A stretch of DNA of 64,000 nucleotides, taken from positions 16,087 to 80,086 of the forward strand of contig CAKPOE010000003.1 of assembly GCA_934169745.1 (NCBI GenBank). Reading direction: 5' to 3'. Source of the stretch: an uncultured Clostridia bacterium (GTDB lineage: Bacteria > Bacillota > Clostridia > TANB77 > UBA1234). Below the pieces are notes generated by a model that was given only the letters and a program-made list of their open reading frames with translations, was not told the DNA's origin and did not search any database. The position numbers were made by a program, and so were the translations under genes. Positions 47,114 through 48,700 of the stretch are shown piece after piece (within the stretch, counting starts at the first letter, position 1; each line of letters opens with the position of its first letter).

Positions 47114-47941
47114 TTATCTTTGGCCTAATTTATTTTCTAATGCTGAAAGAATAGCATCAGAAAGTTTATTTGTCTCATTAATAAAATATCCATTTCTATC
47201 CGTAGCAATATCCGCATTGATGTTTGTTGCAAAGAAGTTTAATGCTTTACCTTCATTACACGCATCAAAAAATTGTGTGTTGTATGGTATTGTATAAATA
47301 GGCTTTTTGTAATTAAAGTTTCTTGCAATATTTTTGTTTGTATATGTTGAAAATCTATCATACTTTCCTATAACAGAAATTATAGGTTTTTCTTGAAGTA
47401 TCTTCAACTCATTTATATCTTTAAAAATCTTTTTAAGAACTTGCATCTTCTGACTCATGGTTAAAACAATTAAATCAGACTGTTGTAAAATTTGGTTTAT
47501 TTCAGCACTATTATAGCCCCTACTTAAATCAACCATTACTATATCATAAAGTCTGCTTGATTGCTCAATTATCATTGGCATGGTTTCAAGTACTCTGTCG
47601 TATGAGTCTTTATCGTTTTTAAATGTTCCATATAGCAATTCCAACTTGCCTCTCATTAAAGGACTAGCATAGTTTGAAATGTTTTCAGGGTTCAATTTAT
47701 TACTTCTGTACAACCTGTCCAAAGCATCCATACCTGTATCTGCAATATCAAGATTTCCCTTAGAACTCTTTTTGTCAAGATTATCAAACGATGTTTCTAA
47801 GTCCATATTTTGATAATGTGTTTGAGTTAATAATATTTTATATTTGCTTTTAGAAGCCATACAACATGCTACAGCAACAATCGTTGAAGTTGTTGCTGTT
47901 TGCGTTGATTCAACAGTACTCCAAAATGATACTATTGGCAT
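47114..47941 (-). CDS. MinD/ParA-fold protein with degenerate P-loop (TadZ/CpaE-like pseudo-ATPase)
   Basis: 275 aa. IVSFWSTVESTQTATTSTIVAVA aligns with the SxKGGvGKTT motif but lacks GK[ST]. VMVDLSRG aligns with the vviDxp switch. Confidence 0.45.
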   Translation of the reverse strand: MPIVSFWSTVESTQTATTSTIVAVACCMASKSKYKILLTQTHYQNMDLETSFDNLDKKSSKGNLDIADTGMDALDRLYRSNKLNPENISNYASPLMRGKLELLYGTFKNDKDSYDRVLETMPMIIEQSSRLYDIVMVDLSRGYNSAEINQILQQSDLIVLTMSQKMQVLKKIFKDINELKILQEKPIISVIGKYDRFSTYTNKNIARNFNYKKPIYTIPYNTQFFDACNEGKALNFFATNINADIATDRNGYFINETNKLSDAILSALENKLGQR

Positions 47942-47956
47942 ATTCCCTTCCCCTTT

Positions 47957-48700
47957 CTATGCAGTAAATCTTGCAATCTTCTCTATATTTTTTTCAACTT
48001 TAACAAGTTTGTTTTTTTCTTCGCCCGTTATCAAAGAAACCATTTGAACAATTCCGGCCTTCATGTCTCTCGATAAATATCTGAAGTTTATCTTAGTAGA
48101 GTATTGGTTTTGAATGTTTATTGATAAGTCTCCAGCATCATAAGGCAATACAATTGAATTTACCCAACGTAGCGGAAGATTTTCCGATAAGTTTTCAATA
48201 TATTTTGTATCAGCTGTATTTACGTTTTCACTGTAATACAAAACCTTTGTTAAGTCTACTTCAGCGTCTGTATCTTCTCTTCTCTTAGTCGCACAAATAT
48301 ATTTCAATAATTCAACGCCCTTTACAATGTGCATTTTATCAAATGAAGATACAAAAAATAGGTTATTAGCATTTTTTATATCATACTCTTCACACATTTC
48401 ATCAGAATCAGTATCAATAAGTACATATTCATATTCTGTAAAATCTTCGCCTTTTGAAATTAGATATTTCTTAAGCTCTAAAATATTATTAAACCCAATA
48501 GCTATGTCAATTCCGTCATGTTCAACAATATATTGTGTTTGAAGATTCATACCATTTATAGCAGGAATTGTATACCTTGTCTTTTGAGTTGTTGTTGCAT
48601 CAATAAATATTGTTTTCTTTCCCATTGAAGAAAGCATTTTAGCAACGTATTGAATTAACTCTGTTTTATCCATTTTACCTACAAATCCAACGCTTTTCAT
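47957..48700 (-). CDS. MinD/ParA-fold protein with deviant Walker A (second TadZ/CpaE-like protein)
   Basis: 247 aa. VGFVGKMDKTELIQYVAKMLSSMGKKTIFIDAT is a partial P-loop; LIDTDSD is switch-like. Confidence 0.4.
   Translation of the reverse strand: MKSVGFVGKMDKTELIQYVAKMLSSMGKKTIFIDATTTQKTRYTIPAINGMNLQTQYIVEHDGIDIAIGFNNILELKKYLISKGEDFTEYEYVLIDTDSDEMCEEYDIKNANNLFFVSSFDKMHIVKGVELLKYICATKRREDTDAEVDLTKVLYYSENVNTADTKYIENLSENLPLRWVNSIVLPYDAGDLSINIQNQYSTKINFRYLSRDMKAGIVQMVSLITGEEKNKLVKVEKNIEKIARFTA

Follow-up and report, generated by a model that had tools for sequence, protein, structure and literature searches.

We analysed a 64,000-nucleotide stretch of DNA from an uncultured Clostridia bacterium (GenBank assembly GCA_934169745.1, contig CAKPOE010000003.1, positions 16,087 to 80,086 of the forward strand), hereafter the window, which is chromosomal, has a G+C content of ~31% and has housekeeping genes flanking both sides. 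Its minus strand carries a row of genes that encode, in this order, an alpha-2-macroglobulin (A2M)-like protein of 1576 amino acids (aa), a 425-aa membrane protein, two adjacent open reading frames (ORF2 and ORF1) that are the subject of this study, a 643-aa ATPase and a 784-aa polytopic protein, and that continues with three small pilin-like genes and then two genes whose products have N-terminal hydrophobic helices. ORF1 begins 15 nt downstream of ORF2. In the window, a strong Shine-Dalgarno sequence precedes each of the two, and the spacers measure 15 and 12 nt. ParA and MinD are classic examples of switches driven by ATP. Of the core parts of Tad pili, TadZ/CpaE is the one that is understood least; its gene lies, in standard Tad loci, just upstream of that for TadA/CpaF and downstream of that for CpaB/RcpC. 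A sequence-only reading of this DNA had described ORF1 and ORF2 as adjacent MinD/ParA-fold proteins with ruined Walker A motifs, and both ORFs and the motifs that it quoted are present. The features of the pair are as follows (AF2, AlphaFold2; HMM, hidden Markov model; A6, the ORF1 family alignment described below).

47957-48700, minus strand: ORF2, 247 aa, predicted ParA/MinD-fold protein with a conserved non-canonical P-loop (ORF list, AF2, Foldseek, family profile)
48659-48688, minus strand: ORF2 P-loop equivalent, residues 5-14, GFVGKMDKTE (gap-free HMM alignment to MinD GGVGKTT)
48593-48601, minus strand: ORF2 Walker A'/switch I equivalent, D34-A35-T36 (aligned to MinD 'IDA(D)')
48407-48427, minus strand: ORF2 Walker B equivalent, residues 92-98, YVLIDTD (aligned to MinD YDYILVDSP)
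47960-48016, minus strand: predicted C-terminal Lys-rich amphipathic helix of ORF2, KNKLVKVEKNIEKIARFTA (AF2 helix 229-246)
47114-47941, minus strand: ORF1, 275 aa, predicted ParA/MinD-fold protein with a P-loop lacking lysines and glycines (ORF list, AF2, Foldseek)
47885-47920, minus strand: ORF1 P-loop equivalent, residues 8-19, STVESTQTATTS, with no Lys and no Gly (alignment A6)
47816-47833, minus strand: ORF1 switch I equivalent, residues 37-42, LLTQTH (alignment A6)
47516-47548, minus strand: ORF1 Walker B/switch II equivalent, residues 132-142, YDIVMVDLSRG (aligned to ParA YDYIIIDCPPS and ORF2 YEYVLIDTD)

Both proteins were predicted to adopt the ParA/MinD fold, in agreement with the sequence-only reading. 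The AF2 models, which are predicted rather than experimental structures and were built from alignments of 30 fairly similar sequences per protein, had a predicted local distance difference test score (pLDDT) of 88.0 and a predicted template modelling score (pTM) of 0.88 for ORF2, and values of 88.5 and 0.89, respectively, for ORF1. In a Foldseek comparison with PDB, the ORF2 model gave 147 matches with NifH, FleN, FlhG and MinD on top (E-values from 8.8e-8; template modelling score relative to the query (TMq) ~0.5-0.63), and the ORF1 model gave 197 matches at E<=1e-3, of which ParA 3ea0 was the first (5.2e-10), followed by Borrelia ParA-like proteins, MinD, Soj and FlhG (TMq up to ~0.7). We did not adopt the label of TadZ orthologue for 3ea0.

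Searched as a single sequence, ORF2 had no Pfam match and no match in NCBIfam or PHROGs, and no member of its family, which comprises 381 clusters at 50% identity in an exhaustive profile search (E<=1e-3), attains a Pfam gathering score. When PDB sequences were searched with the close-relative profiles A1 and A2, only spurious matches were obtained (YidC, ankyrin repeats), and a further search for homologues, based on alignment A4, brought up nothing beyond close relatives that had already been collected. A profile of 73 ORF2-family sequences reaching down to ~20% identity (A3) matched Aquifex MinD (4v02, E=4.6e-6) and Pyrococcus MinD (1ion, 6.7e-4) among PDB sequences, and aligned its 'G-a-c-D-K-s-D...VLlvDaT' to the MinD 'GGVGKTT...VLLIDAA' without gaps and its 'YDyvLiDvD' to 'YDYILVDSP', indicating that ORF2 is a MinD/ParA homologue by sequence statistics as well as by predicted structure.

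Across the 73 representatives in A3, the ORF2 family keeps the motif G-x-x-[DE]-K-[ST]-[DE], together with D-x-T and D-x-D. The position of the signature lysine is V7 in ORF2 and hydrophobic in the family (I in 36 and V in 13 of 73), the glycine position is G8 (72/73), and the glycine that precedes the Walker lysine is represented by the acidic D11 (D/E in 68/73), followed by the Walker lysine K12 (65/73) and the Walker Ser/Thr T13 (S/T in 51/73). The first switch-I aspartate is D34 (72/73), the position of the catalytic aspartate is taken by T36 (T/S in 71/73), and the Walker B aspartate is D96 (64/73), with D/E at the position of D98 in 67/73. What the sequence-only reading had called partial conservation is a strongly conserved family signature and not decay, and its description of the motifs as ruined holds for ORF1 but not for ORF2. 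Judged by these columns, the ORF2 site is conserved and rewired rather than randomly decayed, and the persistence of its motifs down to ~20% identity argues that the site still does something.

The Lys-rich amphipathic C-terminal helix predicted for ORF2 is conserved in its family. In the 73 family members, the mean best hydrophobic moment of the last 22 residues was 0.74, compared with 0.44 for internal windows, by a crude measure on which a MinD membrane-targeting sequence scored low; the same measure gave no clear amphipathic-helix signal at the ORF1 C terminus. On the predicted model, the C-terminal helix of ORF2 may be a membrane tether for a complex of the two proteins. Between the stop codon of the 425-aa gene and the ribosome-binding site of ORF2, we also noted a hairpin whose 12-bp stem is perfect and whose loop has 6 nt (GCTTTGGGCAAC AATAGA GTTGCCCAAAGC; 48727-48756, minus strand); no T-run follows the stem, which may therefore act in mRNA processing or stability and not as a terminator.

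ORF1 as a single sequence matched Pfam CbiA at E=0.055 and nothing in NCBIfam or PHROGs, and no Pfam or NCBIfam model reaches its threshold for either ORF1 or ORF2. Alignment A6 contains 20 ORF1-family sequences, including distant relatives from genomes and plasmids, and its profile gave colinear, non-significant alignments to PDB ParA (E 0.41-0.55). Individual ORF1 relatives had below-cut-off matches to CbiA, AAA_31, VirC1 and MipZ, the best being 1.8e-4 for AAA_31 and 4.9e-4 for CbiA, and the homologue on Thermobacillus pTHECO01 is annotated in RefSeq as 'chromosome partitioning protein ParA'. Three ORF1 relatives (P0110, P0393 and one more) also had weak, below-cut-off matches to PF24278 (HVO_0513_N, a Haloferax family) over residues ~77-162 (E ~1e-5), which might reflect the archaeal TadZ relatives noted in the literature, among them arCOG00589 and arCOG05608, or be due to chance.

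The motif loss that the sequence-only reading reported for ORF1 stands, but its alignment was two residues off: both the alignment of the family and the AF2 helix, which begins at residue 17, place the Walker lysine at T17 and the Walker threonine at T18, leaving the conclusion of loss unchanged. In this register, the G-K-T triple is A16-T17-T18 in ORF1 and G-K-T, G-T-T, G-N-T, G-V-T or G-A-T in its relatives; among the 20 sequences, T18 is present in 19 and G16 in 13, and position 17 is variable (T/N/S/K/A/V). One relative (L036) has K-E-E-T-G-K-T with both lysines present, and this retention of K-x-x-x-G-K-T indicates that ORF1 descends from a deviant Walker A ATPase. The switch-I aspartates are replaced by Q40 and H42 (Q/H40 in 18/20, H42 in 14/20), positions at which L036 has D and E, and the Walker B aspartate D138 and G142 are each kept in 19/20. 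ORF1 has thus lost the residues that bind nucleotide, and the window lineage is among the most eroded. In neither the diverse ORF1 alignment nor the diverse ORF2 alignment was there a conserved lysine compensating for the missing signature lysine.

As the sequence-only reading had stated, the canonical deviant Walker A KGGxxGK[ST] is present in neither protein (motif scan and column counts). The pattern [AG]x4GK[ST] occurred nowhere in ORF1, ORF2 or 153 aligned family members, and the neighbouring ATPase scored as expected, which excludes an intact P-loop shifted elsewhere. The proposal that the pair is duplicated fared less well, in that no sign of a recent duplication was found (ORF1 versus ORF2, BLASTP E 2.2) and hhalign linked the two families only marginally (E 2e-4, probability 47%); thus, any duplication must be ancient.

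The genes around the pair resemble components of Tad pili, and the features that bear on this comparison are as follows (TM, transmembrane).

48766-50043, minus strand: 425-aa single-pass membrane protein, CpaB/RcpC-like by homology (homologues with a SAF domain)
45170-47101, minus strand: 643-aa CpaF/TadA-like ATPase, carrying an intact Walker A (GEQGCGKT, 45944-45967) and a TM helix at its N terminus (phmmer, TIGR03819, TM prediction)
42774-45128, minus strand: 784-aa polytopic membrane protein in the platform (TadB/C) position (eight predicted TM segments, conserved synteny)
41457-42713, minus strand: three genes for small pilin-like proteins of 124, 133 and 145 aa, which have one N-terminal hydrophobic helix each (the first two at 41916-42713, the third at 41457-41894)
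39765-41444, minus strand: two more conserved genes of the cluster, encoding proteins of 164 and 391 aa with a TM helix at the N terminus

The gene that follows the pair encodes a secretion-type ATPase, as the sequence-only reading had claimed, and it is related to CpaF: a phmmer search of PDB matched CpaF at 7.6e-8 over residues 275-539 (265 residues), TIGR03819 in NCBIfam was matched at 4.9e-6, and RefSeq homologues are named TadA, CpaF or 'T2SS/T4P/T4SS family' ATPase. The Pfam T2SSE match was below the cut-off both for the window protein (0.097) and for its Cohnella homologue (1.5e-4). The N-terminal TM helix and the ~270 residues that precede the CpaF-homologous part, both of which are also found in Cohnella, are unusual for TadA/CpaF. 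The GTG listed as the start of this gene directly abuts the Shine-Dalgarno sequence, and translation therefore probably begins at the ATG that lies four codons further on (MFINY...). The SAF domain is a hallmark of CpaB/RcpC; the 425-aa protein has no Pfam match itself, its Cohnella homologue matches SAF at 1.8e-10, and its plasmid homologues are annotated as 'SAF domain-containing protein'. For the 784-aa platform candidate, no Pfam, NCBIfam or PDB match was found, including with a 13-sequence profile against PDB. The first two pilin-like proteins start with M[ED]NASKAL[IM][IM]AG followed by the hydrophobic helix, and the pilin-like genes are conserved in related loci; these proteins have no recognisable prepilin leader, no Flp G/XXXXEY motif and no family match. 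A search of polytopic ORFs of the window for a prepilin peptidase (peptidase A24; TadV/CpaA) turned up PlsY, a holin-like protein and a 201-aa ORF without a Pfam match (15302-15907), but no such peptidase, which may still be encoded elsewhere in the genome. A PHROGs scan of the cluster returned nothing relevant and hence gave no sign of a phage origin.

This arrangement is widely conserved. We collected 46 loci, including 32 loci from metagenome-assembled genomes (MAGs) of uncultured gut and rumen Clostridia, Cohnella laeviribosi, and plasmids, and the order SAF protein, ORF2, ORF1, ATPase, polytopic protein, pilin-like genes and two further genes was observed in 44 of them. The full order was present on plasmids of Paenibacillus polymyxa M1, Thermobacillus composti, Lysinibacillus sphaericus, Alkalihalophilus pseudofirmus, Clostridium argentinense and Butyrivibrio proteoclasticus; the plasmid loci were L037, on the P. 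polymyxa M1 plasmid, and L039-L046, on pTHECO01, pBsph, pCY186, pCY360, pBpOF4-01 and plasmids of C. botulinum, C. argentinense and C. beijerinckii. The genes of the pair are closely spaced or overlapping in 44 of the 46 loci, always between the SAF gene and the ATPase gene; ORF2 and ORF1 often overlap or abut, which suggests coupled expression. On C. botulinum pFI1111E1 (L040) and C. beijerinckii p1 (L044), the ORF1 homologue is kept and no ORF2 is detectable between the SAF gene and the ATPase gene. The ORF1 homologues on the B. proteoclasticus plasmids are ~120 residues longer (391-398 aa; L042, 4761-5936, and L046, 4477-5673). Altogether, 49 plasmids, which are Bacillota megaplasmids, carry a homologue of the ATPase. 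The database entries of the two families, and most of those of the cluster, are almost all 'hypothetical protein', and we found no paper on this cluster; the literature on pXO16, on conjugation in Bacillus cereus and on pili linked to C. botulinum plasmids yielded nothing on it.

Because the pair lies between the SAF protein and the ATPase in the order SAF protein, ORF2, ORF1, ATPase, it occupies the slot of TadZ/CpaE in Tad loci, immediately upstream of the ATPase gene and downstream of a CpaB/RcpC-type gene, in line with the position upstream of a secretion ATPase that the sequence-only reading described. The two proteins share with TadZ/CpaE the predicted ParA/MinD fold and an atypical Walker A from which little or no hydrolysis would be expected, and ORF2 may also have a C-terminal amphipathic helix. 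However, they are two separate single-domain proteins whose ParA fold starts at residue 2-3 without a REC-like N terminus, the signature lysine of KGG is present in neither, the P-loop of ORF1 in the window lineage contains neither Gly nor Lys and that of ORF2 contains an acidic residue, and no TadZ/CpaE or other family model reaches its threshold. Since the ParA motif test failed and the receiver-like domain is absent, the pair was not filed as TadZ. C. laeviribosi DSM 21336 has in addition a canonical TadZ-like gene of 451 aa just upstream of the SAF gene (L033, 6772-8127), whose product has a REC-like N terminus and KGGVGTTT and matches AAA_31 (3.7e-11), ParA, MipZ and CbiA above threshold; the G-T-T at the Walker lysine position of ORF1 relatives resembles this motif. 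A jackhmmer search with the Cohnella protein against all fetched loci found no second copy, indicating that a canonical TadZ is not a regular part of the cluster, and the pair may complement rather than replace TadZ in some genomes.

MinD, FleN (FlhG) and Soj/ParA are the best structural matches of the pair; the ORF2 profile aligns with MinD across the P-loop, switch I and Walker B, and the Walker B aspartate is kept in both proteins. The pair differs from them in that it has no KGGxxGK[ST], no MinE, MinC or ParB partner is present in the cluster, and the context is a pilus machine instead of cell division, flagellar number or DNA segregation. McdA-type ParA proteins provide a precedent for a functional ParA-fold protein that breaks the Walker A motif rule and lacks the signature lysine in the motif, whereas McdA keeps the Walker lysine, the glycines and the catalytic aspartate, draws its signature lysine from another part of its sequence and hydrolyses ATP very actively (PMC8684754). 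The cluster as a whole has in common with Tad/Flp (type IVc) pili a CpaF-like ATPase, a CpaB-like SAF protein, a ParA-like accessory, a large polytopic protein and small proteins with an N-terminal helix, all in one operon. It differs in the N-terminal TM helix and long N-terminal extension of its ATPase, in having a single membrane protein of 690-790 aa without a T2SSF match, in pilin-like proteins without a Flp motif or obvious leader, and in that no prepilin peptidase was found in the cluster or the window.

We propose, with a probability of roughly 0.6, that ORF1 and ORF2 form a hydrolysis-dead, TadZ/CpaE-like heterodimeric scaffold around the motor of a divergent Tad-like pilus cluster. 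TadZ, which is of the FleN/MinD type, has a Walker A that is atypical; it binds ATP, hydrolyses it poorly and acts as a hub that recruits Tad components (PMC6668835). In ParA proteins, the Walker lysine serves ATP binding, the invariant glycine dimerisation and the Walker A' aspartate catalysis, and the signature lysine touches the ATP of the partner across the dimer (PMC8684754). Viewed against these residue roles, the terms 'catalytically dead' and 'scaffold' used by the sequence-only reading would be reasonable readings (PMC8684754). According to this model, ORF2 and ORF1 would be two anciently diverged single-domain members of the deviant Walker A fold that jointly take the place of TadZ/CpaE, and their tightly spaced or overlapping genes would give a fixed proportion of the two proteins. 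They would assemble through the ParA dimer interface into a pseudo-symmetric heterodimer, the counterpart of the ATP-sandwich homodimer of ParA, MinD and TadZ, and this heterodimer would act at the cytoplasmic face of the membrane as a non-hydrolysing scaffold or ring that surrounds or docks the membrane-anchored CpaF-like hexamer. By analogy with the CpaE dimers around CpaF in Caulobacter, it would link the ATPase to the CpaB-like SAF protein and to the platform protein. The nucleotide site of ORF1 would be lost altogether, with no lysines, no glycines and no switch-I aspartates in the window lineage, and the pocket retained in ORF2 (Walker Lys/Thr, first switch-I Asp and Walker B Asp) would permit at most ligand binding without turnover; alternatively, the carboxylate of ORF2 itself might fill the phosphate site. 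The predicted fold, the motifs with their conservation, the gene order and the relationship of the ATPase to CpaF are results of the analysis, from which the heterodimer, its part as a scaffold or ring, the lack of hydrolysis and the membrane targeting are inferred.

Several observations weigh against this proposal. The sequence similarity of ORF1 to ParA is not significant, and the link rests on predicted structure; likewise, the platform and pilin candidates are assigned by their position and topology. The N-terminal receiver-like domain of TadZ is found in neither protein, and the presence of a TadZ-like gene besides the pair in Cohnella means that there the pair is not simply 'the TadZ'. 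The C. botulinum and C. beijerinckii plasmid variant without a detectable ORF2 indicates that the pair is not strictly obligate. Moreover, the conserved K12, S/T13, D34 and D96 of ORF2 could mean that it truly binds nucleotide and has a regulatory part, and is not a dead scaffold. A bolder form of the scaffold model, which we regard as speculative and rather doubtful, is that the pair marks an unrecognised class of type IV-filament machine, widespread on Bacillota chromosomes and megaplasmids, with a membrane-anchored CpaF-like motor, a giant platform, leaderless pilin-like subunits and no dedicated prepilin peptidase, in which the TadZ homodimer would be replaced by an obligate pseudo-ATPase heterodimer and the acidic residue of ORF2 would mimic a phosphate, giving a nucleotide-free, permanent interface.

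The retained residues of ORF2 lend themselves to a different explanation, which is possible but tentative, namely that ORF2 is a live nucleotide switch and ORF1 its partner with a dead site, the two forming an asymmetric regulator in which a conformational change that depends on ATP/ADP would control how active the CpaF-like motor is or in which direction it works, in place of a passive scaffold. The family-wide G8, K12, S/T13, D34, D96 and D98 are the pattern of a phosphate/Mg site that is in use, TadZ binds ATP despite its atypical Walker A (PMC6668835), and McdA demonstrates that residues absent from the motif can come from elsewhere in the protein (PMC8684754). However, an acidic side chain at the invariant glycine (68/73) should clash with or repel the phosphates, the catalytic aspartate is replaced by threonine (T/S in 71/73), no signature lysine is present in the motif and no other lysine is conserved across the diverse family, and the presumed partner ORF1 has no lysine at the signature position in the window lineage. 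It is far less plausible that the ParA-fold assignment is an artefact of structure prediction on shallow alignments and that the true fold is another: although the AF2 alignments held 30 fairly similar sequences each and single sequences fell below Pfam thresholds, two independent models pointed to the same superfamily with hundreds of matches, the independent ORF2 sequence profile matched MinD (E 4.6e-6) with the motifs in register, individual ORF1 relatives matched CbiA and AAA_31 down to 1.8e-4, and the N-terminal strand-loop-helix and the hhhhD Walker B strand lie in the expected places. We consider that possibility hardly credible.

Two further explanations concern the origin and context of the genes. 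The degenerate Walker A motifs, and the annotation of one homologue as a chromosome partitioning protein ParA, would fit decayed ParA partition or MinD remnants that hitch-hike beside pilus genes without a function there. This is very improbable given that both families are intact, conserved in length and under clear purifying selection (mean column identity 66-67% among close relatives), that specific motifs persist to ~20% identity, that the position is fixed in 44/46 loci across Bacillota classes, and that no ParB or centromere partner occurs in the cluster. In the other explanation, the cluster would instead be part of a DNA-transfer (conjugation-like) apparatus of Bacillota megaplasmids, with the pair acting like VirC1 to recruit a relaxosome or a coupling protein. 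The plasmid copies often adjoin genes for replication-relaxation proteins, cell-wall hydrolases, a thermonuclease and S-layer-homology/DUF5704 proteins, with a type IV coupling protein on pCY360, and such neighbours hint at a link to plasmid transfer or cell-cell contact; the number of plasmids with an ATPase homologue (49), the weak match of the ATPase to TIGR03819, a 'conjugal transfer-associated' TadA family, and the weak VirC1 match of one ORF1 family member point in the same direction. Nevertheless, the window and 30+ MAG loci are chromosomal and lie among housekeeping genes with no relaxase or coupling protein nearby, PLSDB types 49/49 of the plasmids as non-mobilizable, and no literature was found that ties the cluster to transfer, so we regard a transfer apparatus as unlikely.

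What is new here is a two-protein, motif-degenerate ParA-like module, probably with a TadZ/CpaE-like function, in a divergent, widespread Tad-like system of Bacillota. It offers a natural case in which the switch is split into two proteins, one without a nucleotide site and one with a conserved, rewired site, and would reveal which functions of TadZ need ATP and which are purely architectural. As both families are large and have no Pfam or NCBIfam model, defining them would allow a pilus-like cluster to be better annotated in its hosts, which are gut and rumen Clostridia and bacteria with megaplasmids, namely Paenibacillus, Lysinibacillus, Butyrivibrio and the toxin-plasmid-bearing C. botulinum and C. 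argentinense. Culturable hosts exist, so the model is directly testable, and confirmation of the pseudo-ATPase heterodimer, or of the machine as a distinct one, would add to its interest.

Other features of the window lie outside the conserved module. Directly upstream of the cluster, the A2M-like protein (50200-54930, minus strand) has MG2, A2M_BRD and A2M domains, and its gene occurs only in the closest relatives (L004 and L006). A gene for a D-Ala-D-Ala carboxypeptidase (Peptidase_S11) is found just upstream of the cluster both in the window (55783-57006, minus strand) and in a distant relative (L038, 1487-2659), in which a sporulation YtfJ gene is also nearby; the Peptidase_S11 side of the cluster may represent a conserved chromosomal neighbourhood. 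The cumulative GC skew of the window reaches its maximum at ~36000-40000, where the gene orientation flips from plus to minus, a pattern as expected for a replication terminus. A gene for a tyrosine recombinase (phage integrase family) is located at 30095-31099.

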